Assembly (NCBI GenBank): GCA_965233585.1 | Contig: CBDDTI010000435.1 | Coordinates: 1 to 32,471 of the forward strand | Reading direction: 5' to 3' | DNA length: 32,471 nucleotides | Origin: a bacterium | GTDB lineage: Bacteria; SAR324; NAC60-12 | Part shown: positions 1,502 to 27,087 of the stretch, piece by piece | Layout: each line of letters begins with the position of its first letter | Numbering within the stretch: position 1 is the first letter of the stretch | Program-made: the position numbers and the translations under genes | The notes under the pieces: model-generated | The model's database searches: none | What the model was told of the DNA's origin: nothing | What the model saw: the letters and a program-made list of their open reading frames with translations, nothing else

Positions 1502-2039
1502 ACGGATGACGGGAGCCTGTTTTTAGATGTTTTCGGCCCGAATTCATCTAAAAAAATCTAAATGCGTTCTAAATTCATCTAAATTCATCTAGATGCGTTC
1601 TCGTTGCAAGCAAAACGTCAACTGATTCAATCTAAAAGCATCTAAATGCACACCGATTTCTGGTGCGTGCACCAAAAGTTTGGTGCCTGCATTGCTGTGT
1701 CTAATGCTGGCATGAAAAATTTGGTGCGTGCACGAAAAGTTTGGTGCCTGCATTGCCTCGTCTAATGCTGGCATGAAAAGTTTGGTGCGTGCATGAAAAG
1801 TTTGGTGCCTGCATTGCTTTGTCTAATGCTGGCATGAAAAGTTTGGTGCGTGCATGAAAAGTTTGGTGCCTGCATTGCTCTGTCTAATGCAGGCATGAAA
1901 AAGTTGGTGCACGCACTAAAAATTTCATGCACGCATCAAAATTTTACTTGTCTGCATTACTTTTTCTGGTGCCGGGATCTCAATTTTGACGCTGGCGTGA
2001 AATTTTAGATCCAGGCACCAGAATGTCAGCGGTCCATAG
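1502..2039 (+). repeat. Left terminal inverted repeat (538 bp, outermost bases missing)
   Basis: 1502 ACGGATGACGGGAGC... to ...CAGCGGTCCATAG 2039 is the reverse complement of 21593-22191. Confidence 0.95.
1661..1904 (+). repeat. 61-bp tandem array inside the left TIR (4 units), built of 20/21/20-bp subunits each with TGCnnGCA
   Basis: TGGTGCGTGC at 1661, 1722, 1783, 1844; partial unit from 1905. Confidence 0.92.
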
Positions 2040-6261: not shown

Positions 6262-6649
6262 AAAACAGCGGTTTTTGTTTTGTTTTTCTTCTCTTACCGC
6301 TTCCTACCGCATGCGTGCTATTTTTTCTCTTGACCGGTCTCTTGGACGCCTGTGCAGGCCTACTCGCCTTACCAGCCAGTAAGATGTTTCTAGTCGCGGA
6401 TTTTAATCTCTTTTTCGCAGCGGCTCCAACTGCTTTGCCGTCCAAGGCTTCCAGTGCGGTGTCAATGGCCGCTCGTCCCGCCTCTTTTTTCAAATATCGT
6501 CCCGCGGATCTGACACCCTCGCTTCTCGCAATTTTACCGATTGTCTTTGCGGCGCCCTTCGCCACCGGAACCAACGACCGGAAAAGACTGCTAAAAATTG
6601 AACCTAATCCCGCCCCAGCTTGCACAGACGGACCACGGTGGTATCGCAT
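6221..6649 (-). CDS. Basic virion core/membrane-active protein (QxGxG plus amphipathic helix family of Polintons)
   Basis: VQAGAGLGSIFSSLFRSLVP N-terminus; K/R-rich body; acidic tail. Confidence 0.8.
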   Translation of the reverse strand: MRYHRGPSVQAGAGLGSIFSSLFRSLVPVAKGAAKTIGKIARSEGVRSAGRYLKKEAGRAAIDTALEALDGKAVGAAAKKRLKSATRNILLAGKASRPAQASKRPVKRKNSTHAVGSGKRRKTKQKPLFYVEDDNDDDEDDY

Positions 6650-6655
6650 ACTTTA

Positions 6656-7375
6656 TCAATTTTCAATTTTTTTGACGCACCTGCTTAAGGCCATCGGACT
6701 AACGCCTAATTGCTCGGCTAAACGCGATAAGCTTTTCGGCTTTTCCTGATCAACCCTACTCCGTTGTTCTCTTAAAAAGACGTGCGCGCATGCCGCGATT
6801 AGTGTTTTTGGCGAAAAAACAAACTTTTTTTCGTGTTGCTTTACTTTCTCTCTAATTTCCTTCAACTCCTTGTAGCTTAGATTTAAAGAGTGAAGAAAAT
6901 ATTCGCACATTAAATTTGGGCTGTAGAAAGAGTCGTCGTTTTTAAGATATTGCCACACTTTGTCCTGCTTGACGCCGGTTATGGCACATAAATCTTTCAT
7001 CGGTCGCGGCACCCCCGACTCTATAAGCGCGGTGTAGATGCACATTACCGCTAAACTTTCTAAACAAACACCTCTTTTCCCTCTTTTCCCGCTAGCGTCC
7101 CATTTTTTGGCGATGACGCGTTTTAAATCCGCGCATTCGATATTGCACTTATAGCATACCCTTTGCATTGTCTCATCAGTAAAATTGTTTTTGTCGCAAG
7201 TCACATCCTCGCTCATTTTCTCCGTTTTAATCGATTCGAGCCGATAGTCATACGGGGCATATAGCCGATCATGCATCACGAGCCCGCAATCTGTACATAC
7301 TTCACACCCGTTTGAAAAATCATCCACAATATTGTAATGAGAACAAGTCCTGTTGAAATTATGAAAACGAGGCAT
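6656..7375 (-). CDS. TFIIB-like general transcription factor
   Basis: Zn ribbon CSHYNIVDDFSNGCEVCTDCGLVM; cyclin-fold repeat 1 AVMCIYTALIESGVPRPMKDLCAITGV; repeat 2 SPKTLIAACAHV...SLSRLAEQLGVSPMALSRCVKKI. Confidence 0.9.
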   Translation of the reverse strand: MPRFHNFNRTCSHYNIVDDFSNGCEVCTDCGLVMHDRLYAPYDYRLESIKTEKMSEDVTCDKNNFTDETMQRVCYKCNIECADLKRVIAKKWDASGKRGKRGVCLESLAVMCIYTALIESGVPRPMKDLCAITGVKQDKVWQYLKNDDSFYSPNLMCEYFLHSLNLSYKELKEIREKVKQHEKKFVFSPKTLIAACAHVFLREQRSRVDQEKPKSLSRLAEQLGVSPMALSRCVKKIEN

Positions 7376-7418
7376 GTTTATTTCTCCGCACGCGCTGCAA
7401 AACTGAAACGCGAATCAA

Positions 7419-7979
7419 CTATCGATCGCTTTTATATTGTTTCAAAAAATCTATAATAAAGTCCAAACTATGTTTGACCGCATCTTCGGACTTGGCCCCG
7501 ATGATTACCATCTTGCCTGTGGAAAATATTAAAACCGTGTTGGCTTCAAAAGTCACAAACATGCCTGGGAAACGTTCGGGATTGAAGCGTACTTTTTTCA
7601 CGTAGCTCTCCTTCCGAAGTTTATCAAAAACGTCCGGCAGCGGTATCTCAAAGCCCGCACGAAAGGAACAAGTTAAATTGTTTATTTCCCATGTTTGCAC
7701 AAAGAAACGATTGCTGATAATGTCCGTCAGCAGACTTAACGATATTTTTATATCCGCTCGCGATGGCACTTTGGTAATATTGACATGATATGATTTGTTG
7801 TTTCCGCGGGTCTTGAAAATGGTGTAGACGTATTGTTTCCTCACTACCGTAAAATTACTAAAAACTTTTTGTGACACATCTTTATTTAAGGATAACGGCC
7901 CCTCATCCGTAAGAATAATTGTGCAGCTAAGCTTTATATTTGTCACAGTGACGTGCTCCGTGTTGTCTAGAAATGTCAT
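7419..7979 (-). CDS. TATA-binding protein (TBP)-like factor
   Basis: C-terminal repeat INNLTCSF..GFEIPL...FNPERFPGM....NTVLIFSTGKMVIIGAKSED is a clear TBP signature; N-terminal repeat diverged (VTNIKLS...NFTVV...YTIF...VNIT). Confidence 0.92.
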   Translation of the reverse strand: MTFLDNTEHVTVTNIKLSCTIILTDEGPLSLNKDVSQKVFSNFTVVRKQYVYTIFKTRGNNKSYHVNITKVPSRADIKISLSLLTDIISNRFFVQTWEINNLTCSFRAGFEIPLPDVFDKLRKESYVKKVRFNPERFPGMFVTFEANTVLIFSTGKMVIIGAKSEDAVKHSLDFIIDFLKQYKSDR

Positions 7980-9313
7980 CGTTGATTAATGGCGGTGTCG
8001 GCGGTTTAAATGTGGATTTCAATGAATTGCAGGGTGATAGTTTGAATGCGCATGCGACCCCCCTCGAAGACACGGATTTAATATCAGGTCGTACTGTGCT
8101 ATATAGTAGCGTGACTCCCGTCGAAGATTTAGAAGATGTTACGTTTTCAATTCCTTCCGACCCCGAATGCGCTTTTGTTTTAAATCAGACGAGGCTAGAG
8201 GGTTACTTTGTGGTAAAGACCGACAGCGGCGAGGGTGTAACAGACACTGACACGCCAACAATTACTAACCATTATTGCGCCGCATTATTCTCGCAAATTG
8301 AAGTCCACCTTAACGGAACTCAAATATGTGATTTGAGTGCCCCTCTTTCTTATTCGTACAAACACCACATTGACTTTCTCCTGTCCTATAACAATAATGT
8401 ATTAACAAATGTGGGACGGTCCGAAGGCTTTTGCCGAACGCACCACGACAAATGCTTTGACAATATTACCACGACCGGTAAAATGTGCCAATGCATCGCG
8501 GAGAATCGTGCGAAAATAATAAACGACAAAAAAGTTTATTTTAGCTCAACTTTGCCCGCAGATATTTTTTACACCGACAAATATTTACCTCCGAATGTGG
8601 AAATCACTGTTGTATTACGCAGGTTCAACCCGTGTTTCGGGCTGCTTCAAGATAATCCGAACAAAGTCTATCGCATTCGTTTAAAGGAATTAAAACTTCG
8701 CATGAGAAAAGTGTTACCGTGCGAGCGTGTGCGAAACAGGCTAAACGCCGAACTGCTAAAAGGTCGACCATTTTTTCTGCCTTTTAAAGACACGCAGATG
8801 AAGCATTATCTGATCCCGTCTGGTTCCCTTAGTTTCTCTGCAAATCACATCAACAATAGCGAGATGTTGCCGCAACAAATTATTTTCTGCATGCTTCGAA
8901 GCGACCTTTTTGCCAAGGGACCGAGCGATCAATTTCCCTTTAAATTTAAACACGCCGATTTAGCATCCGTCATTTTAAAAAACAATGGAAGACCCCTCTT
9001 GCCTAGACCTATAGAATGCAAGATACTTACAGGCGATTATATGGAATTGTACGACCATTTTCAAAGCAACGTCGGCGGCAGAAATTGTATTTCACCCCAA
9101 GCTTTTACAGAGGGTCAGATGTTTCTCGCGTTCGACCTGACTCCGGATAAATGCCTATCCTTTCACAATCACGTCGGAGTGCCCGGAAATTTAGAACTAG
9201 ACTTGACTTTTAACACCCCCACCAGAACCCCCTTAACCCTGATTTCTTACGCTATTTATAATGCTGCCATTTCCATCGACAGCAACCTTCAGGTTACCAA
9301 AATAAAATATTAA
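7973..9313 (+). CDS. Major capsid protein paralogue 1 (double jelly-roll, PY-like)
   Basis: LFSQIEVHLNG, DIF..DKYLPP.V, LPQQIIF, FLAFDLTPD, GNLELDLTF motifs; alignable along its length with 9383-10717. Confidence 0.88.
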   Translation: MSSLINGGVGGLNVDFNELQGDSLNAHATPLEDTDLISGRTVLYSSVTPVEDLEDVTFSIPSDPECAFVLNQTRLEGYFVVKTDSGEGVTDTDTPTITNHYCAALFSQIEVHLNGTQICDLSAPLSYSYKHHIDFLLSYNNNVLTNVGRSEGFCRTHHDKCFDNITTTGKMCQCIAENRAKIINDKKVYFSSTLPADIFYTDKYLPPNVEITVVLRRFNPCFGLLQDNPNKVYRIRLKELKLRMRKVLPCERVRNRLNAELLKGRPFFLPFKDTQMKHYLIPSGSLSFSANHINNSEMLPQQIIFCMLRSDLFAKGPSDQFPFKFKHADLASVILKNNGRPLLPRPIECKILTGDYMELYDHFQSNVGGRNCISPQAFTEGQMFLAFDLTPDKCLSFHNHVGVPGNLELDLTFNTPTRTPLTLISYAIYNAAISIDSNLQVTKIKY

Positions 9314-9382
9314 AATTGCACACCGCCGACTCCCTCTTTTTAAGAAGAACAGAAAACTACAGACTAGCATGCATTTTCGACA

Positions 9383-10717
9383 ATGACTGAAAAGGGTGGC
9401 ATCGGAGGTCTAGGGTTCGAGCAGGACGATTTGACAGAACAAGCTCTTGATCTGCACGCGCCGCTCGGGGTCGATATAAGCCTTGAAAAAGGCAATGATG
9501 TGGTCTACAACAGCGTTTCCAGCGTTTCAAACACCGGACCGATCGAATTCATCATCCCGCGAGACGAAGAGTGTTCCATCATTCTGGATCAGACTAGATT
9601 AATAGGGCATTTCGTTGTCAAGACAGCAAAGGATGAAAATGTCGGACCCGACGATCGAGTCTTTCTGGCCAATAATTTCGCGAGCAATCTATTTAGCGCG
9701 GTTGAAATCTACATTAACGGTACTCAAGTCTGCGACTTGAGCACGGCAAATTCCTACCCTTTCAAAAACTTTATCCAGACCGAGTTGTCGTTTGATAGAG
9801 AGGCCAAACAGAGTCAGCTAAGAGCCGAAGGTTATTTTGAAGAAAAAGAAAACGATATTGGAGCTTGCGAGCCCGGTATAAATCAGCGTTTAATACACCG
9901 TCGAAATCTTATACTTCACGGCAAAAAAGTTTATTTCTGCTCTCGATTGGGGGCGGATATTATGTATACGGATAAGTATATGCCACCGAATGTCGACATC
10001 AAGATTAAGCTTATTAGAAACAGTCCGACATTCGGTATTCTTCACGCCGAAGATGACAAATCTTTTAAAATCGTTTTAAAGGATTTAAAGTTGAAAATGA
10101 GAAAAGTTTTGCCGGTCGAGCAGCAGAGAAAGCATTTTAGGATGAAAATGTCTCAACAGCCCTGCTATATACCCTTTAAGCTGAGTCAGTTGAAGGTTTT
10201 TGTGATTCCAGCCGGCGTCACATCGTACACCGTTACCAATATTGCCTCACAAATACTGCCCAAACAAGTTATTTTCACCCTAATTCACAACCAAGCCTTG
10301 ACGCACGATAGCAAATTCAACCCGTTCGACTTTCAACACTTTGATCTTAATTATTTCAATCTTATTAAAAACGGACAATGCGTCTTCCCAAAAGCTTTTC
10401 AGCCGGATTTTGATGATGATAACTACATGGACCTGTACAGACACATGTACGACAGCACGGGTTTCGGCATTTCAAATAGTTCTTGCGACATTTCGCCCGC
10501 GGTTTTTAAGAGAGGAAGATGTTTTCTAACTGCCGATTTGACCCCCGATCGCTGCAACAGTTTTCACATTCACCCCGACGAAAAAGGCAAGTTGGACTTG
10601 GAATTAGGCTTTAAAACAGCCAAGCCTCACCCCATCTACCTGCTAGCCTACAGCATTTTTAATTCCGGAATTAAAATAGAGGAGAACGGCCAAGTTGTTA
10701 GGGCCGAAGAGCGATAA
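9383..10717 (+). CDS. Major capsid protein paralogue 2 (double jelly-roll, PY-like)
   Basis: GPIEFII, LFSAVEIYING, NSYPFK.FI, LPKQVI, NPFDFQHFDL, DLTPD, LELGF motifs. Confidence 0.9.
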   Translation: MTEKGGIGGLGFEQDDLTEQALDLHAPLGVDISLEKGNDVVYNSVSSVSNTGPIEFIIPRDEECSIILDQTRLIGHFVVKTAKDENVGPDDRVFLANNFASNLFSAVEIYINGTQVCDLSTANSYPFKNFIQTELSFDREAKQSQLRAEGYFEEKENDIGACEPGINQRLIHRRNLILHGKKVYFCSRLGADIMYTDKYMPPNVDIKIKLIRNSPTFGILHAEDDKSFKIVLKDLKLKMRKVLPVEQQRKHFRMKMSQQPCYIPFKLSQLKVFVIPAGVTSYTVTNIASQILPKQVIFTLIHNQALTHDSKFNPFDFQHFDLNYFNLIKNGQCVFPKAFQPDFDDDNYMDLYRHMYDSTGFGISNSSCDISPAVFKRGRCFLTADLTPDRCNSFHIHPDEKGKLDLELGFKTAKPHPIYLLAYSIFNSGIKIEENGQVVRAEER

Positions 10718-11202
10718 TGGCCGGTTTGAGCAACGTATTTCTAGATCGGTTTTTATCCCCACTTTGCAAGAATTTCATCGGCACCTTTGCAGTCGACACG
10801 TTACCCTCAAACTTGTGGAACACTAGCTGTTGCGCCATCGTCAATCTTTCGGTTTCAAGCCATCCCGGCAGTCATTTCATCGCCTTTTTTATTAATAAGC
10901 AAAACTATTTGTATTATTTCGACAGCTATGCACTACCCGTGCCCGCCTATAATCACCACCTCATCCATTTTTTGAAAAAATGGGAAAATTGCGGCAGAAT
11001 AAGACATGTCCTGGACCGATCGATTCAAGCTTTCGATTCTTTGTTTTGCGGGTGGTATGCTGCCGCATTTTGCATGTTTGTCAATGCATACGCAAACGTG
11101 AAGCCGCGACACTTTTGCACTTTTTTTAATCCCAATAATTTACGCGAAAATGAAAAACGCGTCAAACATTTAGTTAATTGTTTGCAAGTCAAGCTTTATT
11201 AG
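10717..11202 (+). CDS. Adenain-like (Ulp1/C5-type) cysteine maturation protease
   Basis: IVN....HPGSHF (His), YFDSY (Asp), IQ...S.FCGWY (Gln, Cys); TAATG overlap with the MCP2 stop. Confidence 0.93.
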   Translation: MAGLSNVFLDRFLSPLCKNFIGTFAVDTLPSNLWNTSCCAIVNLSVSSHPGSHFIAFFINKQNYLYYFDSYALPVPAYNHHLIHFLKKWENCGRIRHVLDRSIQAFDSLFCGWYAAAFCMFVNAYANVKPRHFCTFFNPNNLRENEKRVKHLVNCLQVKLY

Positions 11203-11325
11203 AATATACAGAATTGCCTATAATGTTTTAGTTAATAAAAAGCCGCAAATCTGATTTCTGTTCTGCAGCAAAGCTGCAGTCGCCGCCGTTGCCGCGGCTG
11301 TTGCCGCGGTTGCACACACGCATCT

Positions 11326-13662: not shown

Positions 13663-14439
13663 ATGCCGAAAAATAGGGAATCAAGATTAATTGGTTTTAA
13701 GAGGTGTGGGCCTTTCCAAATAAAACTGGGAAGAAGGACACCTGTGGATCAAGTCTCGGTCGAGCTCACGTCCGCATCTTCCACCGTCGCGCTGCCTTCG
13801 AACTCACCGCCCGCTTCCCTTTCCACCTCTTTTATTCAAATTAGAACTGAGCCCCTTTTTTCCTCGACACCAAACACCTCGTTTAGACCGGTGTGTTACA
13901 GCCCTCCGCCTACCCCTTCGCCCGTGCCATCACCGGTCTATTCAATGCCGGCTCCCTTTCGTCCGCTTCAACCTGGCTTGTTCTTACCGGGCCCCCCAAC
14001 TCCGGCTCCACCGAGACTACCAACCATGTCTCCAACGGCTGTGTCCCTCCCGCAATCCCCAATGTTGTGTGACATGAGGGCTTTGCGGGCTCAGCTAAGG
14101 CCGATCCGTCCGGCGCCCATAACAACTCCGCTTCTAGCAGCACCACCGCGACTCGTCATCCCCGAACCGCGAGGAGCAAGGGTGGTAAGATTACCGGGCG
14201 TGTCGGTAAATGGAGGGGTCATAAGTGAGGGGCTCGACTTGAGGGTAAACCGCCCCTGTCCGGATCCGCAGGTTTTTACGGAAAAATTAAAGAAAATTTT
14301 AAGTAAGGTGTCCCCCTTGCTCGTATTTTACGAGTCGCAAGGGGAAAATTTATTTTTAAACCCGTCCATTCGCGAATTGTATAAAAAAAATTTAACTGAA
14401 GTGCAAGAATATGTAGAGAGTGCTAATAATTTATTGTAA
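13663..14439 (+). CDS. Pro/Ser-rich, largely disordered putative regulatory protein
   Basis: 258-aa GC-rich ORF; GLDLR (PxDLS-like) motif; helical C-terminus; candidate 5'UTR intron 13447-13659 (GTAAGT...TTCTAG). Confidence 0.7.
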   Translation: MPKNRESRLIGFKRCGPFQIKLGRRTPVDQVSVELTSASSTVALPSNSPPASLSTSFIQIRTEPLFSSTPNTSFRPVCYSPPPTPSPVPSPVYSMPAPFRPLQPGLFLPGPPTPAPPRLPTMSPTAVSLPQSPMLCDMRALRAQLRPIRPAPITTPLLAAPPRLVIPEPRGARVVRLPGVSVNGGVISEGLDLRVNRPCPDPQVFTEKLKKILSKVSPLLVFYESQGENLFLNPSIRELYKKNLTEVQEYVESANNLL

Positions 14440-14534: not shown

Positions 14535-15170
14535 ATGACGCACAAGTGTGAAACGTGTCACATATCGTTTTCCAGAAAGAGTCGTCTTGCCAATCATTTA
14601 AAATTAAAACACAGAAATCAAGCAAATCATAATGGTCGCGACAAGTTGAGAAAGTGCCCGTTTTGTGAACTTAAATACAGTGATAAGAACGAGTTATCGT
14701 CTCACGTAGATTCGAATCACGCGGAATCAAGGGTATTTTCTAAAAGGCAAGGAGCCATTGGCGACAAAGTTTGCATTTTCCAACAAGAACTGACTCACCT
14801 AAAAAGCTCTTTGCAAGATTTTTGCAACTCTAAGCAAACGATCGAAAATGTGTTTAATCTCGTTAAAAGTCAATTTACACATCGGGTGGTTTGTCGAATA
14901 AGTATAACAATCACGGCAGATTACGAGATACAGGGTTTAGATGAAGAAAGTCAGGGAAAAAGCGTCGACATCGATTCTTTCACGTTACGGTCAAAAGGCG
15001 TCGCGGTCAACAAATATCAAAGCGATGAGCAGATTCGAGATAGGATAAAGTCACTTTTGGCTGGATCGGTGGAGAGGGAAGACGATTTGTTAACTAGAGG
15101 TTCAGGCTGGCGATTTGCTCAACTTCAAAGTTGCAGCGTTTTAATCTATGACTGTAGCAGTATTTTTTAA
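14535..15170 (+). CDS. Two C2H2 zinc fingers plus terminal-protein-like region normally at the pPolB N-terminus
   Basis: CETCHISFSRKSRLANHLKLKH and CPFCELKYSDKNELSSHVDSNH; RGSGWRF motif near the C-terminus; TATATAAAG ~70 bp upstream. Confidence 0.8.
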   Translation: MTHKCETCHISFSRKSRLANHLKLKHRNQANHNGRDKLRKCPFCELKYSDKNELSSHVDSNHAESRVFSKRQGAIGDKVCIFQQELTHLKSSLQDFCNSKQTIENVFNLVKSQFTHRVVCRISITITADYEIQGLDEESQGKSVDIDSFTLRSKGVAVNKYQSDEQIRDRIKSLLAGSVEREDDLLTRGSGWRFAQLQSCSVLIYDCSSIF

Positions 15171-15172
15171 TA

Positions 15173-18100
15173 ATGAACAGCGACTCTGTAAACGTGCCCG
15201 AGTATTTATTAAAGTGTCGAAGTGTTTTATGGAACAGAAAATACGATGAAAAGAATTTTCTATATTGTGTCATAGGACATCTTTGGCCGGAAACGGCAAA
15301 CATCAGACGATGCAAAAAAATTCCAAAGGAGTATGAAAGTAAATTTAACTTGCAGGGTTTAACCTTTCCCCTGCAGTTTAGCCAGATTAGCAAGTTTGTT
15401 CGAATTAACAAGCACCTACCGTTACGTATAAGAGTTCTTTTTGAAGGTGAACATCAACTGAGTGTTTTAGACGTTTTCTCCAATAGATCTGGCGAGAAAA
15501 ATAAGAACAAAAATACGCTAAATTTGCTAATGATTAAAAGTGATCGTCAAATTTCATCGGCCAATAAAGACAGCATTGACGTAAATGGCATTTCCAACGT
15601 AAAAGACCTTGAGCATCAGCACCATTTTTTCACTATTGCTAATTTAAATGGCTTTCTGAACAACCGAAAATCTGCTATGACCAAAGGAAGACGGCATAGA
15701 AGTCAGTTTTATTTTTGTGACAGCTGTTTAAGAGATTTTCGTTCGCGCAAGAAACAAAAATTACACGAAAAAATCTGTCAAATGGATAAACAAGCGGTGA
15801 TTTATCCAGAAAAGGGCAGTGTCTTGAATTTCGATAAGCAAAGAAATGCTTTTAAAGCACCTGTAGTGGGATTTGCTGATTTTGAGTGTTTTATGGAAAA
15901 GTCAGAGCAAGAAGCAAAAACATGTAAAACATGCGGAAAAGCGTGGGTGACATGCGAATGTCAAGTGTCGGGATGCGCTGAGCTAAGTAAACATCGAGCT
16001 TGCGGCTATTCAATTTGTTTTGTCGATTCGGAAAACGAAGTATTTTATCAAGAAACGTACAGTGGAAAAGACGCTGTGGAAAATTTTCTATCAAAGCTGG
16101 ATTATTTCGAAGAATTAGTGGAAGCGCGAAAGCAACGGTTCAAGAACACATCTCAAATTATAGCGAGCAAACATGATTGGGAAGAGTACCACGCCGCCAC
16201 GCTATGTCATATTTGCAAAAAAGATTTTGATTCAGGCTCGCGATTATATAAAAAAGTGGTTGATCATGATCACGTCACCGGAAACATTGTTCAAGCGGCG
16301 CATTCTATTTGCAATCTGCAACGACAGGGCCCATTTAGAACACCTATATACTTTCACAACGCCAAGGGGTAAGTACAGACTTTTTTAATATTTATAATCC
16401 TTGACTTGAGGGAAAGTCATTTTAAATTTTTTTAATTTTAAGATATGACATAAATCTACTAGTAGAAAAATTGGACAAAGAGGCTAATCTGATGGCGAGT
16501 AACCAAGAAAAGTTTAGGACAATCACTATTGGAAAATTTCAAATTAGGGATTCTCTAGAGCACGTGCCATCCAGTCTTGATGCGCTCATGACCGATTTAT
16601 GCAAGGATGAGACGTTTACCTTTCCGATTCTCAAACAATTCGAGCCTTACAAGAGGCTGTGGACGCGACAAAAGGCGAAAGGTTTAAAATTATTGAAAAG
16701 AAAAGGAGTATATCCGTATGAATACTTTTCATCATATGAGTCGATTAAAAACAGTCAATTTCCGCCAAAAGACGCTTTCTACTCGAGATTGAGCGAAGCC
16801 CACATCTCAACCGAAGATCATAAGCACGGCTATGAAGTGTTCAAGTTTTTTAATTGTAAAAATATGGACGACTACATGAAGTTATATTGCGGACTGGACG
16901 TGATTTTGCTGGCTGAGATTTTTGTAAAGTATCGAGAAATGGTGATGAAGCACTTTGAGTTGGATCCCATCTACTATTTAGGCATACCTGGCTTGTCATT
17001 TGACATCATGCTTAAAATGTTTCAAAATGAAGAAAGAAAAGACGAAGAAGAGATTAGTCCTGATTTAATGTCGAAACCACCGGGCTCATTGGACTTGTTT
17101 CACGATCCGGCAATGGAACAGTTTTTTACACGCGGCATTAGAGGAGGGCAGAGTTTTATAGCTACCAGACAAGCGACGGGTCAGGCCGATCCTAAAGCGA
17201 GCGGCGAGCATTTACTATATGTAGATGGTAATATTTTTTATTAAACGTCAAAGAAAAAAAGATTGATTAAAATTACGATACATTTTCAGCTAACAATCTT
17301 TACGGCAGCATGGAAACACGCATGCTGCCGGTGGGTAATTTTAAGTGGGTGCCAAAAAAGGAGATAAAAACATGGACGGACAAGGACATTTTGAATTTGC
17401 CTTCGCAAAGCAGGATTGGCTATGCTTTTGAAGTGGATTTGCACTATCCAAAAAAATATCATGAGGTAAATAATTGTTTCTGCTAAACACCAACTGCTAG
17501 AAAAATTTTTTTTATTTATTTTGCAGAGAGATGATCAATTTCCTTTGGCTCCTTACACTGACACAATAAACTTTGATGATCTGTCACCGTTTAACAAACA
17601 ACTTTTGAAGAAGCACTGTCCGACTGATTACAAAAACAAACGTTACAGTTCGCGAAAGCTTCTTGCCACATTCTACCCGCGACGTAAATATGTCGTCTTG
17701 TTAGATAATCTAAAGTATTATTTGAGGCGAGGGCTGAAGCTTACAAAAATCAGACGAGCGGTCAAGTTTGAGCAAAAAGACTTTTTAAAAAACTTTATCA
17801 CAAAAATTACAAAATTAAGGTCGGAGGCAAAAACTGATTTTGAATTACGTCTCTTCAAGTTGTTTGCCAATTCCACATTTGGCAAATTTATAGGTAAAAT
17901 AAAGTAATGGCTCCCTTTTTTCACAATAAAATGTTTAATTTTTTTCAGAGAACGCGCGAAACTACATCGAAATCGTATTGTGCCACAATGAAAAGAAGCT
18001 GAGAAAGACTTGCATGGGTCAGCATGTTTCGAATTTGAAAGTCATAAACGAAAACCTTGTGGCTGTCATGAAAAAACCGGCCGTTATTGAAATGAAGAAA

Positions 18101-18736
18101 CCGTTGGCGGTGGGGTTTGCGATTTTGGAACTATCCAAACTCTACATGTATCGATCGTACGACAAATTTAGACGTTACTTTGGAACGGAGAATCTAAGGT
18201 TGTGCTTTTCGGACACAGACTCGTTTCTGTTTCAAGTAAAATGTCAAAATTTAGTTAAAAAGTTAAAAAGAATGGAACACATGTTCGACTTCTCAAAATA
18301 CGATAAAGATCACGAGTTGTTTGACGATAGCAGAGCCAATCATTTGTTTTACTTCAAAGACGAGCTAAAAGGAAAGGCCGCAATTACTGAATTTATCGGC
18401 TTAAGGCCAAAATGTTACAGCATGACGGTCAAGGATTTGAAAACCCGAGGAGCCAGCGTAAAGAAAATTTGTAAGGGCCTTAAAAAAACTAGTATTAAAA
18501 ATCACTTGACCTTTGAGGATTATAAAAAATGTTTAAACGAATCAACATTGGTATATAAGCCTCTTGTTAATATTAAATCAAAGAATCACAGAATGTCAAC
18601 AACCTACCAACGGAAAATTGCTCTATCTGCCATGGACACCAAACGTTATGTGCTTTCTTGCGGAAAGTGCACTTTGGCCTTAGGAAGTTGTCATGTAAAA
18701 AAATGTTATAAACATGAATGTAAGGAAATCAAATAA
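15173..18736 (+). CDS. polB: Protein-primed family B DNA polymerase, 5 exons (15173-16368, 16443-17227, 17290-17465, 17527-17893, 17949-18736; 1103 aa)
   Basis: ExoI FADFEC; endonuclease VII-like insert CHIC...DHDHVTG....AHSICNL; splicing restores FHNAKGYD (ExoII), YVDANNLYG (A) and KLFANSTFGKFIEN (B); FSDTDS (C), RKGVYPYEY and GLRPKCYS present; all introns GT-AG. Confidence 0.95.
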
Positions 18737-18798
18737 ACGTATTGATAAAAATTGATCGTAATATTTTGTCTCTTTTTTGTGACAAGAAAATTAAAAAC

Positions 18799-19485
18799 AT
18801 GGACGGATTTGATTTGCGCTTTAAGCTTCCATCTAACTTACTCGCGGTAGGTCCCACTTCTTGCGGAAAAACGTCATGGCTAAAAAAACTGGTTGAAGAT
18901 AGGGCCGTAATGTGCTCGCCCGTTCCGGAATGTATGATTCTATTTTACAAAGAATTCCAACCGACCTATGCTGATATGGAGCGGGGGATGAACGATGACG
19001 CGCGTGAAAAGAGGTTTTGCAAATTTTCATCCATGCCAGAATCGGTTGAAGAGATGAAAGATATACTGGAAACGTTCCCTAGAGCTCTTCCGAAAATTGT
19101 GGTATTTGACGATTTTCTTGATGAAGTAGGATCGGTGCTAAAGCACTTTTTCACGGTTTTAACGCATCATTATAATTGTTTGACAGTTTTTTTGTGTCAG
19201 AACATGTTTAGCGCCAAAAGCGAACTCAGAATGCTCAGCATCAACTCGCAGTACATGATTTTATTCAACAATCCCAGAGACCGTAGCGCCGTCTCGCACC
19301 TGGCTAAACAGGTGTATCCGGGTAACGTGCATCGGCTAAACGATGCATATGCGGCAGCAACCGGTGAAAGACCTTATGGCTATTTACTGCTGGATTTTCA
19401 TCAGCAGCAAAATAATTTGGTTCGATTAAGAAGTCATATTTTTCCGGACGAACAGCCTACAAGGGCGTACAACGTACGCACGTAA
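18799..19485 (+). CDS. A32/FtsK-like DNA packaging ATPase
   Basis: Walker A GPTSCGKT, Walker B IVVFDD, HHYN, QN.F, NSQYMILFNNPRD, PYGYLLLD; ATG 18799 preferred over the TTG at 18742. Confidence 0.93.
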   Translation: MDGFDLRFKLPSNLLAVGPTSCGKTSWLKKLVEDRAVMCSPVPECMILFYKEFQPTYADMERGMNDDAREKRFCKFSSMPESVEEMKDILETFPRALPKIVVFDDFLDEVGSVLKHFFTVLTHHYNCLTVFLCQNMFSAKSELRMLSINSQYMILFNNPRDRSAVSHLAKQVYPGNVHRLNDAYAAATGERPYGYLLLDFHQQQNNLVRLRSHIFPDEQPTRAYNVRT

Positions 19486-19515: not shown

Positions 19516-19869
19516 ATGACGAAATCACTAGAAAAAGCAGTTTCTCTTTTAAACGCGGTAAAACATTTAAAAGACCGTGACTGTTCCAATTTCATTGGAT
19601 GTTTAAACGAGGAAGGCATCTATACTCTGTGTCGAATAATACACTACGTTTTGAACGGAGAGCTTACTTTTAGTAAGCGCGTTCGAGCAAGGTTAAGATC
19701 GAAAGTCGGGTGTCATCTGCCTGACTTTAAAAAACTGTCAAATTACCCGCGCAATAGTCGAGATATTTGCAAAAAGAAGCGAATACTGCAAAGAGGAGGC
19801 ATAATCGGGGTTCTGACGGCTATTGCTAGCGCTGTAATACCTCTAATCACTCAACTTATTACAAAATGA
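19516..19869 (+). CDS. Conserved small Polinton virion protein (QxGG site followed by an amphipathic C-terminal helix)
   Basis: KKKRILQRGGIIGVLTAIASAVIPLITQL; typical position after the ATPase. Confidence 0.8.
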   Translation: MTKSLEKAVSLLNAVKHLKDRDCSNFIGCLNEEGIYTLCRIIHYVLNGELTFSKRVRARLRSKVGCHLPDFKKLSNYPRNSRDICKKKRILQRGGIIGVLTAIASAVIPLITQLITK

Positions 19870-21440
19870 AAAAGAAACAGGAAGAGGACGTATCCACCAT
19901 GTTTTTGGTGCCGAAACGAATTTACCTAGCCGTGAGGGAGGTCATTAGCGAAGATGACAAGCTTAATCAATTAGATCAATTGAATAAAGGTACAAATTAT
20001 ATAGAAGACGCTATTCAATTTAAGCAGCAGAAATCCTACAAGACACAACCGGAAGATTTGAAGAAAACGGTTTCAACTTTGGTAAATACGTTCAATAACA
20101 TTGAGCAGCCAGCGCAGATCGAAATAAACTCCTTGCCTGCTCGAAACAGCGAAGAACTCTCGCAAGATGGTTTTACTTCTGTCCCTCCATCAAGCGGAAG
20201 CCAGCTCGATGGTCCTAATTTCATCTTTCCACCTGTAAATCCAACGGAAGCGGAAAACGTAAAACATCAAAAGGAAATAACGCTTTCGCATCAGGAAATT
20301 GCATCGGAAAATTTACTTAATAACGAGCCTCAGCCTCAACATTGCGAACCATCAAACATCGACTTGAAAAAGAAAAACAACGTTCCGCCAAAACTTAGAT
20401 GCCCGTTTTGTAACTATGCAACCTACTCAAGGGTATATTTTCTTATGGAACATTTGCGTAATAAACACAACTACCGCGCTAGTTTGGAAGAAGAAAGATC
20501 AGCAAGAGAAACATTGGAAAAGGCCAAAATTGAGCGCAATTCAAACAAAACCAAGGAACCTTTGCCATCTTTTCGCGGCAAAAGAAAAAACATTAGTGTC
20601 GAGGATGAAAGCGGCATTCCATTAAAGCGGCGAAAACGTGATTGTTTAACTAAAAATTACGATGAAAATGAACCACTTTCGAAATTAAGACGCAATGTAA
20701 AAAATAAAAAATTAAATGCAAAACCAACAAAGAAAAAGGTAAAAAAGTCAACTTTTGATGAAAACGAGCCACTTTCTAAATTAAGACGTCAAGGTGTAAA
20801 AACGAAGAAAGAAAAGAAAGAAAAGTCAACTTTTGATGAAAACGAGCCACTTTCTAAATTAAGACGTCAAGGTGTAAAAACGAAGAAAGAAAAGAAAGAA
20901 TCAAGAAAATTAACTGTTGATGAAATACCTAAACAAGATGGGAAGCTTTTTAAATTACGAAAAAACCCGTTTTACATGAAGCCTTATAAAAAATACAATA
21001 CGAAGAAAGAAAAGAAAGAATTAAAAAAGTTGACTGTTGATGAAATACTTAAACAGGATGGGAAGCTTTTTAAATTACGAAAAAACCCGTTTTACAAGAA
21101 GCCTTGTGAAAATTACGATGAAAATGAACCACTTTCGAAATTAAGACGCAATGTAAAAAATAAAAAAATAAATGCAAAACCGACAAAGAGAAAGTTAAAA
21201 GAGTCGACTTTTGATGAAAACGAGCCACTTTCTAAATTAAGACATCGAGGTGTAAAAACGAAGAAAGAAAAGAAAGAGTTAAAAAAGTTGACTGATGATG
21301 AAATACAGCTTTTTAAATTACGAAAAAACCCATTTTACAAGAAGCCTTATAAAAATTACGATGAAAATGAACCACTTTCAAAATTAAGACGCAATAGTAA
21401 AAAAAAAACCCGTTTTACAAGAAGCCATTTCCTAAATTGA
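19866..21440 (+). CDS. Lys-rich repetitive protein with one C2H2 finger
   Basis: ATGA overlap; MFLVP motif; CPFC...HLRNKH; six DENEPLSKLR and three LFKLRKNPFY repeats. Confidence 0.75.
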   Translation: MKKKQEEDVSTMFLVPKRIYLAVREVISEDDKLNQLDQLNKGTNYIEDAIQFKQQKSYKTQPEDLKKTVSTLVNTFNNIEQPAQIEINSLPARNSEELSQDGFTSVPPSSGSQLDGPNFIFPPVNPTEAENVKHQKEITLSHQEIASENLLNNEPQPQHCEPSNIDLKKKNNVPPKLRCPFCNYATYSRVYFLMEHLRNKHNYRASLEEERSARETLEKAKIERNSNKTKEPLPSFRGKRKNISVEDESGIPLKRRKRDCLTKNYDENEPLSKLRRNVKNKKLNAKPTKKKVKKSTFDENEPLSKLRRQGVKTKKEKKEKSTFDENEPLSKLRRQGVKTKKEKKESRKLTVDEIPKQDGKLFKLRKNPFYMKPYKKYNTKKEKKELKKLTVDEILKQDGKLFKLRKNPFYKKPCENYDENEPLSKLRRNVKNKKINAKPTKRKLKESTFDENEPLSKLRHRGVKTKKEKKELKKLTDDEIQLFKLRKNPFYKKPYKNYDENEPLSKLRRNSKKKTRFTRSHFLN

Positions 21441-21592: not shown

Positions 21593-22204
21593 CTATGGAC
21601 CGCTGACATTCTGGTGCCTGGATCTAAAATTTCACGCCAGCGTCAAAATTGAGATCCCGGCACCAGAAAAAGTAATGCAGACAAGTAAAATTTTGATGCA
21701 TGCATGAAATTTTTAGTGCGTGCACCAACTTTTTCATGCCTGCATTAGACAGAGCAATGCAGGCACCAAACTTTTCATGCACGCACCAAACTTCTCATGC
21801 CAGCATTAGACAAAGCAATGCAGGCACCAGATTTTTCGTGCACGCGCCAAACTTTTCATGCCAGCATTAGACGGAGCAATGCAGGCACCAAACTTTTCAT
21901 GCACGCACCAAATTTCTCATGCCGGCATTAGACGGAGCAATGCAGGCACCAAACTTTTGGTGCACGCACCAAATTTCTCATGCCAGCATTAGACACAGCA
22001 ATGCACGCACCAAACTTTTGGTGCACGCACCAGAAATCGGTGTGCATTCAGATGCTTTTAGATTGAATCAGTTGACGTTTTGCTTGCAACGAGAACGCAT
22101 CTAGATGAATTTAGATGAATTTAGAACGCATTTAGATTTTTTTAGATGAATTCGGGCCGAAAACATCTAAAAACACGCTCCCGTCATCCGTTTTTACTAT
22201 TACT
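21593..22204 (-). repeat. Right terminal inverted repeat (5 x 61-bp units at 21728-22032)
   Basis: Reverse complement of 1502-2039 plus one extra 61-bp unit and up to 13 extra terminal bases (TTTTACTATTACT). Confidence 0.95.
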
Positions 22205-22844
22205 TTAATTTTCTTATCAAAAACGCTTAACGGAACGCTATTAAGCCGATTTGAAAAGGAGATGTCGGCTAAGGCTATTTTAGCTCCTTCATTTAAATAA
22301 ATCGGATGGCTCAAATGTACCTCGAAATTGTTGTTTTTCTGCGTAGAATTTATGTTGTCATCCATTTTTGAGTGGACGCGAATGTGCTTTGTCAAATATG
22401 ACATTGCTCGTTTTGTTTTTCGCAAGTGAAGTAAAACTAGACTCGGCTGACCCGATTTTAGTCTCAGAAGTTTGTCGGATGTGTCTAAAAACTCAATGCC
22501 CACTGATTTTATTGAAGTGTTTTGAATAGGATAATATCGTATGTTTTTTAAACTATGGTAGAAATATTTGCGTTTTTTGCTTGAAGGCAAGTCGGCCACT
22601 CATAAGATGTGAGAATTCTCGTTTGAGCTTGTAGACACAATGTTGGATTTAACCTGGACCACGTCAAAAACAAAATCTTGTTTTACATTCAAATGCAGAC
22701 CAAAAGCTACAACCCCAACTTCCAATCTCTTCTTTCGTCTAATTCTAAATTTTTCCTTAAAAAATTGTTAAAACACGTTGGCGTGTTTATGTAACAATCA
22801 GTGCTTGCGTTTGAGATGCAATATATGAGATGTCCTCCTTTCAT
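22205..22844 (-). pseudogene. Truncated, frameshifted penton
   Basis: Matches ~4506-5146; 1-nt deletion near 22722 (TTCCAATC vs TTCCCAATC); cut by the element-1 TIR. Confidence 0.9.
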
Positions 22845-22849
22845 ACTTG

Positions 22850-23958
22850 TTACGCCGGATTAATAACGCTATCTTCCGCAATCCAGCTAAGGTTTTTATA
22901 GCCTTTCCACTTTACCAACACCAACTTCTGCCCGGTTCTTTTATCTTTTTTCCTTCTCACAATTTTTTCAATGCCGAATAATTTCGGCGGCTTGGCCAAA
23001 GTCAGCTCATTAGCATAAAAATTTCCCTCAACCGTCTCGTCACCGTCCAAAGTTTCAGCTCGTATGTAGGAATGGGTAATCGCGTAAACACCTGTCTGAT
23101 CTTGTAAATTTCTTCCGTAAATTGCTTATTGTAACCTCTGTCGAATTGAGCTCTGTAGTTACTTATTCTGACCGTCTGACCTTCCTTAAATTTAGGCGGT
23201 CGCCTCTTTATTTTCGCATAAGCCTCTTCTTGTTTCATTCGGACTTTGGGCGCGTTTCTTGCTTTTTCCGCTTCGGCAGGACTCATACCGATCATTCTAT
23301 GAACGCGCGAGTTATACGTCTTTACTAAAGATTGAAGCACGTGGATAAATCGGTCCGTACCCCTAGATGTCATATATTGAAACATTAGACTTTTAAGAGA
23401 TCTGTTAAATCTTTCTACAAACGGCGCGTGCACAAAGTTGTCGCTGTGTAAAAGAATAATGCCTTTACGTCGACAGTAGTCTTTAAAAAATTTATCCTTG
23501 ATCTCTAACCCTCTGTCAGCCAGAATTTTTCGCGGCGGCTGTCTGGCTTTTTTTACAATGGTTTTGAATCCTTTTAAAAAAACCAAAGCTGTCTTGTTTT
23601 TTATAGGTTCAACAAAGGCATACCTCGAAAAAATGTCGATCGCTGTCAGCAAGTAACGATAATTGTCATTCGCGTTCGCCATTTTCCCAATTTCGACCAA
23701 GTCTATTTGGAATTGATATCTTTTATAATAAACATAGGTCGGGTTCCTGGGTTTTGGGGCCTTAGGTTGTCGGTGCAGAGTATAGGTGTCTGACGCCTGC
23801 AGCCATTTCTTTATTTTATTTATGGGTATGGACCCGTTAAAATGATTAAAAACGCGGTTCGGCGATGAAAAGGCGAAAGGCGAGCAGGGCGAAGTGTAAG
23901 CCTTTAAAAATTCGCGTTTAGTAATCATCCTCATCGTCGTCGTCGTCGTCCTCAACAT
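22850..23958 (-). pseudogene. Integrase, frameshifted before the chromodomain
   Basis: Matches 5152-6261; AGTTTCAGC vs AGTTTCCAGC near 23056. Confidence 0.9.
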
Positions 23959-24334
23959 AAAACAGCGGTTTTTGTTTTGTTTTTCTTCTCTTGCCGCTTG
24001 CGCGCTATTTTTTCTCTTGGCCGGTCTCTTAGACACCTGTGCAGGCCTACTCGCCTTACCAGTCAGTAAGATGTTTCTAGTCGCGGATTTTAATCTCTTT
24101 TTCGCGGCGGCTCCAACCATCCTGCCGTCCAAGGCTTCCAGCGCGGTGTCGATGGCTGCTCGTCCCGCCTCTTTTTAAATATCGTCCCGCTGATCTGACA
24201 CCCTCGCTTCTTGCAATTTTACCGATTGTGTTTGCGGCGCCCTTCGCCACCGGAACCAACGACCGGAAAAGACTGCTAAAAATTGAACCTAATCCCGCCC
24301 CAGCCTGCACAGACGGTCCACGGTGGTATCGCAT
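23918..24334 (-). pseudogene. Core protein (QAGAG) pseudogene
   Basis: Frameshift in the T-run near 24172-24178 and a small deletion near 23998 relative to 6221-6649. Confidence 0.88.
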
Positions 24335-24340
24335 ACTTTT

Positions 24341-25060
24341 TCAATTTTCAATTTTTTTGACGCACCTGCTCAAGGCCATCGGACTAAGGCCTAATTGCTC
24401 GGCTAAACGCGATAAGCTTTTCGGCTTTTCCTGATCAACCCTATTCCGTTGTTCTCTTAAAAAGACGTGGGTGCATGCCGCGATTAGTGTTTTTGGCGAA
24501 AAAACAAACTTTTTTTCGTGTTGCTTAACTTTCTCTCTAATTTCCTTCAACTCCTTGTAGCTTAGATTTAAAGAGTGATGAAAATATTCGCACATTAAAT
24601 TCGGGCTGTAGAAAGAGTCGTCGTTTTTTAGATATTGCCACACTTTGTCCTGCTTGACGCCGGTTATGCGACATAAATCTTTCATCGGCCGCGGCACCCC
24701 CGACTCTATAAGCGCGGTGTAGATGCACATTACCGCTAAACTTTCTAAACAAACTCCTCTTTTCCCTCTTTTCCCGCTAGCGTTCCATTTTTTGGCAATG
24801 GCGCGTTTTAAATCCGCGCATTCGATATTGCACTTATAGCATACCCTCTGCATTGTCTCATCGGTAAAATTGTTTTTGTCGCAAGTCACATACTCGCTCA
24901 TTTTCTCCGCTTTCATCGACTCGAGCCGATAGTCGTACGGAGCATAAATCCGATCATGCATCACGAGCCCACAATCTGTACATACTTCACACCCGTTTGA
25001 AAAATCATCCACAATATTGTAATGAGAACAAGTCCTGTTGAAATTTAGAAAACGAGGCAT
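24341..25060 (-). CDS. TFIIB-like factor, second copy, intact ORF
   Basis: 239 aa, colinear with 6656-7375; Zn ligands kept. Confidence 0.88.
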   Translation of the reverse strand: MPRFLNFNRTCSHYNIVDDFSNGCEVCTDCGLVMHDRIYAPYDYRLESMKAEKMSEYVTCDKNNFTDETMQRVCYKCNIECADLKRAIAKKWNASGKRGKRGVCLESLAVMCIYTALIESGVPRPMKDLCRITGVKQDKVWQYLKNDDSFYSPNLMCEYFHHSLNLSYKELKEIREKVKQHEKKFVFSPKTLIAACTHVFLREQRNRVDQEKPKSLSRLAEQLGLSPMALSRCVKKIEN

Positions 25061-25106
25061 GTTTATTTCTCGGCACGCGCTGCAAAACTGAAACGTGAGT
25101 CAACTA

Positions 25107-25664
25107 TCAATCGCTCTTATATCGTTTTAAAAAATCTATAATAAAGTCCAGACTATGTTTGGCCGCATCTTCGGACTTGGCCCCGATGATTACCATCTTG
25201 CCTGTGGAAAAAATTAAAACCGTGTTGGCTTCAAAAGACACAAACATGCCCGGGAAATGTTCGGGATTGAAGCGTATTTTTTTCACGTAGCTCTCTTTTC
25301 GAAGTTTATCAAAAACGTCCGGCAGCAGTATCTCAAAGCCGGCACGAAAAGAACAAATTAAATTGTTTATTTCCCATGTTTTCACAGAGAAACGATTGAT
25401 GATAATGTCCGTCAGCAGACTTAACGATATTTCTATATCCGCTCGCGATGGCACTTTGGTAATATTGACATGATATGATTTGTCGTTTCTACGAGTCTTG
25501 AAAATGGTGTAGACATATTGTTTCCTCACTACCGTGAAATTACTAAAAACTTTTTGTGACACATCTTTATTTAAGGATAACGGCCCCTCATCAGCAAGAA
25601 TAATTGTGCAGCTAAGCTTTATATTTGTCACAGTGACGTGCTCCGTGTTGTCTAGAAATGTCAT
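25107..25664 (-). CDS. TBP-like factor, second copy, intact ORF
   Basis: 185 aa, colinear with 7419-7979; FNPEHFPG and LIFSTGK. Confidence 0.88.
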   Translation of the reverse strand: MTFLDNTEHVTVTNIKLSCTIILADEGPLSLNKDVSQKVFSNFTVVRKQYVYTIFKTRRNDKSYHVNITKVPSRADIEISLSLLTDIIINRFSVKTWEINNLICSFRAGFEILLPDVFDKLRKESYVKKIRFNPEHFPGMFVSFEANTVLIFSTGKMVIIGAKSEDAAKHSLDFIIDFLKRYKSD

Positions 25665-27004
25665 CGTTGATTAATGGTGGTGTCGGCGGTTTAAATGTGG
25701 ATTTCAATGAATTGCAGGGCGATAGTTTGAATGCGCATGCGACCCCCCTCGAAGACACGGATTTAATATCGGGTCGTACTGTGCTGTATAGTAGCGTGAC
25801 TCCCGTCGAAGATTTAGAAGATGTTACGTTTTCAATTCCTTCCGACCCCGAATGCGCTTTTGTTTTAAATCAGACGAGGCTAGAGGGACACTTTGTGGTA
25901 AAGACTGACAGCGGCGAGGGCGTAGGACCAACTGACACGACAACAATTGCTAACCATTATTGCACCGCATTATTCTCGCAAAGTGAAGTCCACCTTAACG
26001 GAACTCAAATATGTGATTTAACTGCCCCTCTTTCTTATCCGTACAAACATCACATTGATTTTCTCTTGTCCTATAATAATAATGTTTTAACAAATGTGGG
26101 ACGGACCGAGGGCTTTTGTCGCACGCACCACGACAAATGCTATGACAGGCTTGACACGTCCGGTAAAATGGTTATGTGCCAATGCATTGCGGAGAATCGT
26201 CCGAGAATAATGAACGACAAAAAAGTTTATTTTAGCTCAACTTTGCCGGTCGATATTTTTCACACCGACAAATATTTACCTCCGAATGTGGAAATCACCG
26301 TTGTATTACGCAGGTTCAACCCTTGTTTCGGGCTGCTTCAAGATGATCCGAACAAAGTCTATCGCATTCGTTTAAAGGAATTAAAACTTCGCATGAGAAA
26401 AGTGTTACAGTGCGAGCGTGTGCGAAACAGGCTAAATGCCGAACTGCTAAAATGTCGACCTTTTTTTCTGCCTTTTAAAGACACGCAGATGAAGCATTAT
26501 CTGATCCCGTCTGGTTCCCTTAGTTTCTCCGCAAATCACATCAACAATAGCGAGATGTTGCCGAAACAAATTATTTTCTGCATGGTTTGAAGCGACCTTT
26601 TTGCTAAGGGACCAAACTACCATTTTCCCTTTAAGTTTAAAAACGCCGATTTAGCATCTGTAATCTTGAAAAACAACGGGAGACCCCTCTTGCCTAGACC
26701 TATAGAATGCAAGATAGATACAGGCGATTATATGGAATTGTACGACCATTTTCAAAGCAACGTCGGCGGCAGAAATTATATTTCGCCCCAAGCTTTTACA
26801 GAGGGTCGGATGTTTCTCGCGTTCGACCTGACCCCGGATAAATGCCTATCCTTTCACAATCACGTCGGAGTGCCCGGAAATTTAGAAATAGACTTGACTT
26901 TTAACACCGCCACCAGATACCCCACAACCCTGATTTCTTACGCTATTTATAATGCTGCCATTTCCATCGACAGAAACCTTCAGGTTAAAAAAATAAAATA
27001 TTAA
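25658..27004 (+). pseudogene. MCP1 with premature stop
   Basis: CGA>TGA at 26588-26590; the frame continues to 27004. Confidence 0.9.
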
Positions 27005-27087
27005 TAATAAAATAAAAACCACACACCACCGACTTCCCCTCTTTTTAAGAAGAACAGAAAACTACGGACTAGCATGCTTTTTCGACA

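Follow-up and report, generated by a model that had tools for sequence, protein, structure and literature searches.

Probable gene fission between the terminal protein and a polymerase with a vOTU-like domain lacking its nucleophile in a Polinton/Maverick element

Results and Discussion

The 32,471-nucleotide (nt) contig CBDDTI010000435.1 (assembly GCA_965233585.1), the whole of which is called the window here, contains a Polinton/Maverick element of approximately 20.7 kb that encloses a locus for a terminal protein (TP) and a protein-primed DNA polymerase (pPolB). In this locus, the TP has its own gene directly upstream of the polymerase gene, as in an adenovirus-type replication module, and the vOTU-like domain at the N-terminus of the polymerase has lost the cysteine that serves as nucleophile in fused relatives. 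In our view, the gene fission at this locus of a Polinton/Maverick (adintovirus-like) element is most probably (probability approximately 0.75) real, old, and conserved.

Under this explanation, an ancestral single gene would have encoded zinc fingers, TP, a vOTU protease domain, and pPolB, and it would have been cut at the presumed vOTU cleavage site PLxG[G/S/H] or no more than one or two residues away from it. The upstream open reading frame (ORF1) would yield a free 24-kDa TP, in which Ser190 of the GSGW loop is predicted to take the first nucleotide, and the polymerase would be made separately, in five exons, from the ATG at 15173. The vOTU would have no TP left to release, and its nucleophile Cys is replaced (by Asn here). 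Expression of pPolB would most likely involve a separate mRNA; reinitiation after the stop codon two bases upstream is possible.

The junction and the stand-alone terminal protein

ORF1 (14535..15170, plus strand) encodes 211 amino acids (aa) and was recognized as a stand-alone TP gene from the reading frame itself, from its stand-alone homologues, and from a profile match to the N-termini of fused pPolBs. The junction (15163..15175, plus strand) consists of a run of six T (T6; 15163-15168), the TP stop codon TAA (15168-15170), two bases, and the pPolB ATG at 15173; positions 15168-15175 read TAATAATG. There is a one-base offset between the two frames, which overlap by four codons across the T-run. 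An initial annotation of this DNA had proposed a TP split from PolB with apparent loss of the vOTU cysteine. Its coordinates and strings (GSGW, T6, TAA, TAATAATG, YDEKNFLYC, and HFFTIANL) were all recovered, its frame arithmetic at the T6 run was correct, and the stop at 15170 followed by a restart at 15173 has counterparts in protein clusters from other contigs.

Two C2H2 zinc fingers (ORF1 residues 3-26 and 40-62; 14541..14720, plus strand) matched Pfam zf-C2H2 above the cut-off (E-value [E] 3.2e-6) as well as zinc-finger structures in PDB, and they are shared with the fused relatives. A PDB sequence search with ORF1 returned zinc-finger matches only. In the AlphaFold2 model of ORF1 (mean predicted local distance difference test [pLDDT] 90.7), the zinc fingers are followed by a beta-alpha-beta-beta-alpha-beta domain, with strands at residues 79-85, 119-133, 143-152, and 192-206 and helices at 93-113 and 164-187. 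The TP fold has been described with the same succession of elements (PMC11071308, section 7), and the TP (D1) domain was assigned, from the model and from Foldseek, to residues of approximately 69-206 (14739..15152, plus strand). The best non-zinc-finger matches of the model in a Foldseek search of PDB were Y-family polymerases. Pol eta (3ohb) ranked highest (E 6.6e-3, probability 0.97), and Dbh, Dpo4, iota, and kappa also matched (overall probability 0.6-0.98, with E of only 7e-3 to 5e-2). These matches fit the published connection of the TP/D1 fold with the Y-family little-finger (PAD) domain (PMC11071308).

The GSGW loop (15099..15110, plus strand; R-G-S-G at residues 188-191) is located in the model between helix 164-187 and strand 192-206. 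Only three columns are invariant in the alignment of 34 split and fused sequences, and Ser190 (codon 15102-15104) is one of them. Linking residues of TPs are found in the alpha2-beta4 loop, beside Gly or Pro (PMC11071308), and the model together with the invariance points to Ser190 as the predicted DNA-linking (priming) residue.

Colinearity with fused relatives and position of the break

ORF1 and pPolB, placed end to end, are colinear with single proteins of fused relatives. By hhalign, columns 1-204 of the ORF1 profile aligned with columns 1-194 of the fused proteins (probability 99.7%, E 2.7e-26), and Met1 of pPolB aligned with the x of PLxGG in the fused protein P0116 (probability 100%, E 2.1e-62). 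Counted by hand, the spacing between Trp192 and the nucleophile column is 46 residues for ORF1 plus pPolB vs. 45-47 residues in three fused forms. Hand alignment also put the terminal Ile-Phe of ORF1 on Pro-Leu or Leu-x of the fused forms, so that the two pieces overlap by one residue at most. At the break, eight fused forms read PLSGG, PLVIG, SLMGG, SMTGG, SLLGH, PLTGS, PITGR, and PLAGH.

Ubiquitin has LRGG at its C-terminus, and the sequence after which viral OTU and papain-like proteases cut is LxG[G/A/S]. Judged by its sequence, PLxG[G/S/H] is a likely vOTU self-cleavage site. Because the break coincides with PLxG[G/S/H] of the fused forms, the gene appears to have been split at the proteolytic site, so the encoded products would be nearly equal to the processed ones. 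It has been argued that cleavage falls between TP and vOTU (PMC11071308); the cited sections of PMC11161782 name no cleavage site for the self-cleavage of polinton vOTUs.

The split in relatives

ORF1-like proteins gave 19 matches (145-235 aa), of which 16 were aligned and three, being fragments, were left out. All 14 ORF1-like clusters that reach the YD column (42-96% identity, other contigs) end 4-17 residues past it, and their tails after this column vary in both sequence and length. The closest ORF1 cluster (96% identity) comprises 25 member sequences, and the closest pPolB cluster (99% identity) comprises 40. No longer, fused relatives of ORF1 were found by a word-index search. The full HMMER scan with ORF1 resulted in 216 matches, mostly zinc-finger noise, and the 24 inspected included 17 stand-alone and seven fused forms. 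Every stand-alone form ends 13-42 residues past the GSGW-type Trp, and 12 of the 17 end after 15-20 residues (19 in ORF1). Identity to ORF1 is only 18-34% for twelve of the 17; these end 13-30 residues past the Trp, 10 of them after 15-20. The seven fused forms (329-900 aa; 23-30% identity over the matched stretches) run on into vOTU and polymerase.

The search with pPolB exon 1 gave 52 matches, 44 of them at 40-99% identity. A TP domain was present in none of these 44 clusters (at least 40% identity), and the length range of the search covered fused ORFs of approximately 610 aa. Thirty-five of the 37 N-terminally complete pPolB relatives start within approximately 10 residues of the Met1 column of the window, and the remaining two have 13 and 30 extra N-terminal residues that are not TP. 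In most N-terminally complete relatives, the start Met is 5-11 residues ahead of a conserved Pro. Sibling copies with a fused ORF, for which the initial annotation had allowed, were absent at the protein level from the 14 ORF1-type and 44 pPolB-type clusters.

The vOTU-like domain

The vOTU-like (D2) domain of pPolB (15173..15700, plus strand) was delimited by an AlphaFold2 model, a BFVD match, and column counts, and it is apparently inactivated. YDEKNFLYC corresponds to pPolB residues 24-32, and HFFTIANL begins at His151 (15623-15625). In the model (mean pLDDT 87.5), Asn28 (15254-15256, plus strand) opens helix 28-37, and His150/His151 (15620-15625, plus strand) are in the fourth strand (148-155). 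Published vOTUs have the catalytic Cys in alpha-1 and the catalytic His in beta-4 (PMC11071308), and these are the positions that Asn28 and His150/His151 occupy. None of the 37 split-clade sequences has Cys at the nucleophile column (33 N, 1 D, 2 Q, and 1 Y). All nine fused-side relatives (seven zinc-finger/TP-fused forms, P0215, and P0209) have Cys-Phe there. The column of His151 is His in 38 of 44 relatives, and the other six have His one position earlier. The proposed loss of the cysteine with retention of the downstream His was thus borne out, and the protease activity of the domain would have been lost with it.

Cys32 (15266-15268, plus strand), the Cys of FLYC, had been named in the initial annotation as a residue that might occupy the catalytic position. 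It does not: the N-terminus of the helix is held by Asn28 in the model, and Cys32 is four residues into helix alpha-1. As a replacement nucleophile, Cys32 was rejected on this ground and on two others. It coexists with the true Cys in the active relatives P0116 and P0155 (CFLYC), and its column varies in the split clade (C, or L/V/I in 12 members).

The best BFVD match of the vOTU model was the C2H2 N-terminal protein of Drosophila-associated adintovirus 2 (E 2e-4, probability 1.0), followed by polymerases of the midsize eukaryotic linear dsDNA virus (MELD), adintovirus, bidnavirus-like, and adenovirus types (E 0.05-0.09). Approximately 15 of the 43 PDB rows listed by Foldseek for this model were OTU deubiquitinases, none significant. 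A PDB sequence search with pPolB exon 1 gave nothing significant.

The dead vOTU, with its His kept, is probably a structural or TP-docking module. A complex prediction for the TP domain and pPolB exon 1 scored 0.43 vs. 0.00 for the best control, which supports docking weakly: 116 of 157 solved complexes reached the score mark, as did 2 of 215 mismatches, and scores of 0.60 or lower at the mark were obtained for only 18 of the 157 solved complexes and for both mismatches. The prediction runs shared at least 32% of contacts, and the pLDDT of the partners was at least 74.

Phylogenetic distribution of the split and the cysteine loss

The tree was built from 41 rows, namely, the window sequence, 33 split relatives, and seven fused forms trimmed to the region in common. 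Of the rows omitted, three were cut, eight were N-terminal fragments or chimeras, six were distant and partial, and two were short fused forms. The split, Cys-less rows formed one side of one branch (one change; Shimodaira-Hasegawa-like approximate likelihood ratio test [SH-aLRT] 99). The fused rows are on long branches, and their mutual order is unreliable. Because the split clade reaches down to 40% identity, it is deep, and the arrangement, to judge by these sequences, has been maintained for a long time. Concerning the suggestion that the split and the Cys loss co-occur across the family, both features do extend across the clade; this represents one historical pair of events and not a repeated correlation.

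Alternative explanations

Several points weigh against gene fission as the explanation. The conservation of the split rests on protein collections, with evidence on the junction at the protein level only, and ORF callers demand a start codon, which biases the hits toward Met-initiated proteins. The OTU identity of the domain is based on its homology to fused forms that have the Cys and the His and on the BFVD matches, the Foldseek search of PDB with the vOTU model having given no significant match (best E 0.59), and the complex prediction adds only weak support. Helical extensions have been suggested to let stand-alone TPs bind their polymerases (PMC11071308); ORF1 is without them, and its length up to GSGW equals that of the fused forms. 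The split and the Cys loss are on one branch, which makes them a single observation in which their order is not readable. To account for the translation, in a eukaryote, of an ORF that starts two bases after a 211-codon ORF, neither a promoter nor a splice acceptor nor a reinitiation element was found. In addition, the T6 run abutting the stop codon, together with the four-codon overlap, is a plausible slippage site.

A one-base slip at this site, ribosomal or transcriptional, would produce an uncleavable fusion of TP, inactive vOTU, and pPolB that stays on the DNA, as proposed for bidnaviruses, perhaps with free TP alongside. The slip products would be colinear with the fused proteins, the Lys runs at the end of ORF1 in the close relatives P0002 and P0003 imply homopolymer tracts at their junctions, and bidnavirids combine a TP that is still fused with a vOTU that is inactive (PMC11161782). 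We nevertheless regard slippage as unlikely: 35 of 37 relatives, at identities as low as 40%, keep a Met at the pPolB start, and the ORF1 tails differ in length (4-17 residues) and sequence. Moreover, the RNA downstream of the T-run forms no unusual structure that might stimulate frameshifting (z-score -1.33; 19 of 200 shuffles fold as well).

Since pPolB contains four introns, an intron that joins ORF1 to pPolB and leaves the gene single was a serious alternative, and it was therefore examined. The four pPolB introns are of the GT-AG type and 55-74 nt long, and the distant stand-alone TP-like ORFs, which end at the same spot, could be exon ends. However, all 100 frame-compatible GT/GC...AG pairs at the junction delete at least 20 conserved residues that are needed for the spacing of the fused forms, and there is no room for an intron because the spacing between Trp192 and the nucleophile column already matches those forms. 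The candidate donors are weak (GTTTTA, GTATTT), none being of the GTAA type found in the four real introns, the acceptors lack a T-rich tract, and GT...AG candidates of 21 and 27 nt at the junction leave the frame uncorrected. A junction intron is thus highly improbable. Slightly less probable still is that the family is really fused and the split is a homopolymer error of assembly or sequencing, or the decay of one copy. Homopolymers are error-prone, and the terminal repeats of the element are only 85% identical, but the same split is found in 14 ORF1-type and 44 pPolB-type clusters from other contigs, including those with 25 and 40 members, and no fused ORF of approximately 610 aa occurs at 40% identity or above although this size was inside the length range.

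Comparison with known systems

Polinton pPolBs have been proposed to free TP by vOTU self-cleavage, and in the adenovirus ancestor a gene split is proposed to have made the protease redundant, with its decay following (Krupovic et al. 2024, PNAS, PMC11161782). In adenovirids, TP is separate and the vOTU is inactivated (PMC11161782), as the initial annotation had summarized in agreement with this source. The Adenoviridae thus resemble the locus described here in the separate TP gene and in the inactivated vOTU-like domain at the N-terminus of the polymerase. They differ in their TP, which is extended by helices at the N- and the C-terminus and contains a large helical insertion (PMC11071308), whereas ORF1 lacks all of these segments and has two C2H2 zinc fingers in their place. 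The adenoviral vOTU has an extra N-terminal beta-hairpin (PMC11161782). Unlike Adenoviridae, the element described here has an rve integrase and terminal inverted repeats. The gene order here (TP, polymerase, and putative packaging ATPase) would match the adenoviral order pTP-Pol-IVa2.

Canonical polinton fusions (Polinton-1 of C. briggsae, Hydra, P0116, P0145, and P0155) share their domain order and exonuclease motifs with the locus described here, as well as the zinc fingers, the GSGW-type loop, and the vOTU His, but they are single ORFs with the Cys present and with the PLxG[G/S/H] linker at which the genes are split here. The pPolB of Bidnaviridae has an inactivated vOTU-like domain, as here; bidnavirids keep the TP fused, so that the whole polymerase stays on the DNA (PMC11161782), whereas TP is a separate ORF here. 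TP-vOTU splits arose independently in polintons, and the polinton of the Stylophora coral adintovirus (StCAV) has a separate TP gene with an active vOTU (PMC11161782). StCAV is like the present element in having the TP gene separate and the vOTU fused to pPolB; its vOTU is described as active, whereas the window and all 37 relatives covering this site have another residue in place of the nucleophile Cys. The adenovirus-type transition proposed in the initial annotation is hence supported in both of its parts, the split and the dead vOTU, but a separate polinton TP gene had already been published.

The new part is the combination of a split TP and a dead vOTU across a deep polinton clade. We found no report of a polinton with both within the literature searched, and the legends of the supplementary information cited from PMC11161782 mention inactivated vOTUs in adenovirids and bidnavirids only. 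In these sources, both features had been known together only from adenoviruses, the sole split polinton reported having an active vOTU. With both features present in a diverse clade of polintons, the scenario of Krupovic et al. gains a second data point. The break at PLxG[G/S/H] is a testable candidate for the unmapped cleavage site, Ser190 is a testable candidate for the linking residue, and the 24-kDa TP with its polymerase offers a simple system for the study of free-TP docking.

More tentatively, and at somewhat less than even odds, a deep, still-active clade of animal polintons may have gone through both adenovirus-type steps independently of adenoviruses, with a split at the cleavage site (stop and start replacing proteolysis) and a subsequent loss of the nucleophile that kept the dead vOTU and its His as a TP dock. 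If so, this two-step transition would repeat, in nature, the origin proposed for the replication module of adenoviruses, and the split at PLxG[G/S/H] would pinpoint the vOTU cleavage site of polinton polymerases.

Structure of the polymerase gene

The pPolB gene is on the plus strand. Exon 1 (15173..16368) encodes the vOTU-like domain, a zinc ribbon, Exo I, an endonuclease VII/HNH-like insert, and the start of Exo II. It is followed by intron 1 (16369..16442; 74 nt, GTAAGT...AAG), exon 2 (16443..17227; open frame), intron 2 (17228..17289; 62 nt, GTAATA...CAG), exon 3 (17290..17465; open frame), intron 3 (17466..17526; 61 nt, GTAAAT...CAG), exon 4 (17527..17893; open frame), intron 4 (17894..17948; 55 nt, GTAAAA...CAG), and exon 5 (17949..18736), which extends to the stop codon. 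Introns 1-3 were read from the sequence, and their junctions, three of the four, are colinear with the uninterrupted relative P0145. Intron 4 was placed by GT-AG and frame arithmetic only, as no relative spans its junction. Exon phases were worked out by hand, and by the same arithmetic the five exons total 3312 nt, in frame. Exon 1 ends in FHNxxG at the donor of intron 1, and 39 of 44 relatives end there or at most six residues away. Pfam DNA_pol_B_2 was matched above the cut-off (25.8 bits) in exon 2 (30.2 bits, E 2.9e-7) and in exon 4 (26.9 bits, E 2.8e-6). The four GT-AG introns indicate a eukaryotic host. The Atlas clusters nearest to pPolB exon 1 are eukaryotic, mostly arthropod, and the Atlas search with ORF1 was swamped by zinc-finger clusters and thus uninformative.

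The endonuclease VII/HNH-like insert in the exonuclease region (approximately 16196-16336; exon 1 residues 342-388) matched PF02945 below the cut-off (E 5.9e-4). The same family occurs in several relatives, fused forms included.

The surrounding element

The element is a Polinton/Maverick of adintovirus-like type, with pPolB, an rve integrase, and terminal inverted repeats present. The left terminal inverted repeat (1502..2039) was found by self-BLAST as an inverted match, 85% identical, to the right one (21593..22191, matched over 21593-22191). An integrase of the rve-chromo type is encoded at 5152-6258 on the minus strand (Pfam rve E 4.1e-10, above the cut-off). A weak ATPase_2 match, below the cut-off (E 0.0016), was obtained for the ORF at 18724-19482 downstream of pPolB. 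Candidates for capsid and maturation-protease genes gave no Pfam match, and no structural search for them was made.

ORFs are tightly packed, with same-strand pairs that abut or overlap by 1-4 nt, such as 9383..10717 with 10717..11202 and 19516..19869 with 19866..21440. This packing is like that of virus genomes and unlike that of host genes. On the plus strand, neighboring ORFs abut or overlap at 2624-3486, 9383-11202, and 19516-21440, and a stop and a start codon share base 10717.

Upstream of the TP gene, a proline-rich ORF of 258 aa without family match is located at 13663-14436 (plus strand), and a splice-acceptor-like TTTTCAG precedes the TP ATG by approximately 30 nt. Downstream of pPolB, the ORF at 19866-21437 (plus strand) encodes a Lys-rich protein of 524 aa with a C2H2-like motif and repeated units of the DENEPLSKLRR type; it had no Pfam match, and its DNA is tandemly repeated at approximately 20651-21408.

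A second copy of the element (22200-28932), restricted to the left half, directly follows the right terminal repeat and is 94.7% identical to 4501-11230. It was considered as a sibling of the TP-pPolB junction and discarded, being truncated and without TP and pPolB. Several of its ORFs are fragmented into shorter pieces.

On the minus strand, a TBP-like ORF (7419-7976; Pfam TBP E 9.7e-17, above the cut-off) adjoins a TFIIB-like ORF (6656-7372; zinc ribbon E 1.2e-4, below the cut-off), and the pair recurs in the second copy (25107-25661 and 24341-25057). A literature search judged on titles and abstracts found no report of a polinton-encoded TBP. Arrays of a repeat of approximately 61 bp are present in the terminal inverted repeats (1661-1936 and 21696-22032, from self-BLAST offsets), and tandem repeats of approximately 138 bp are found outside the element, at the left edge of the window (1-579).

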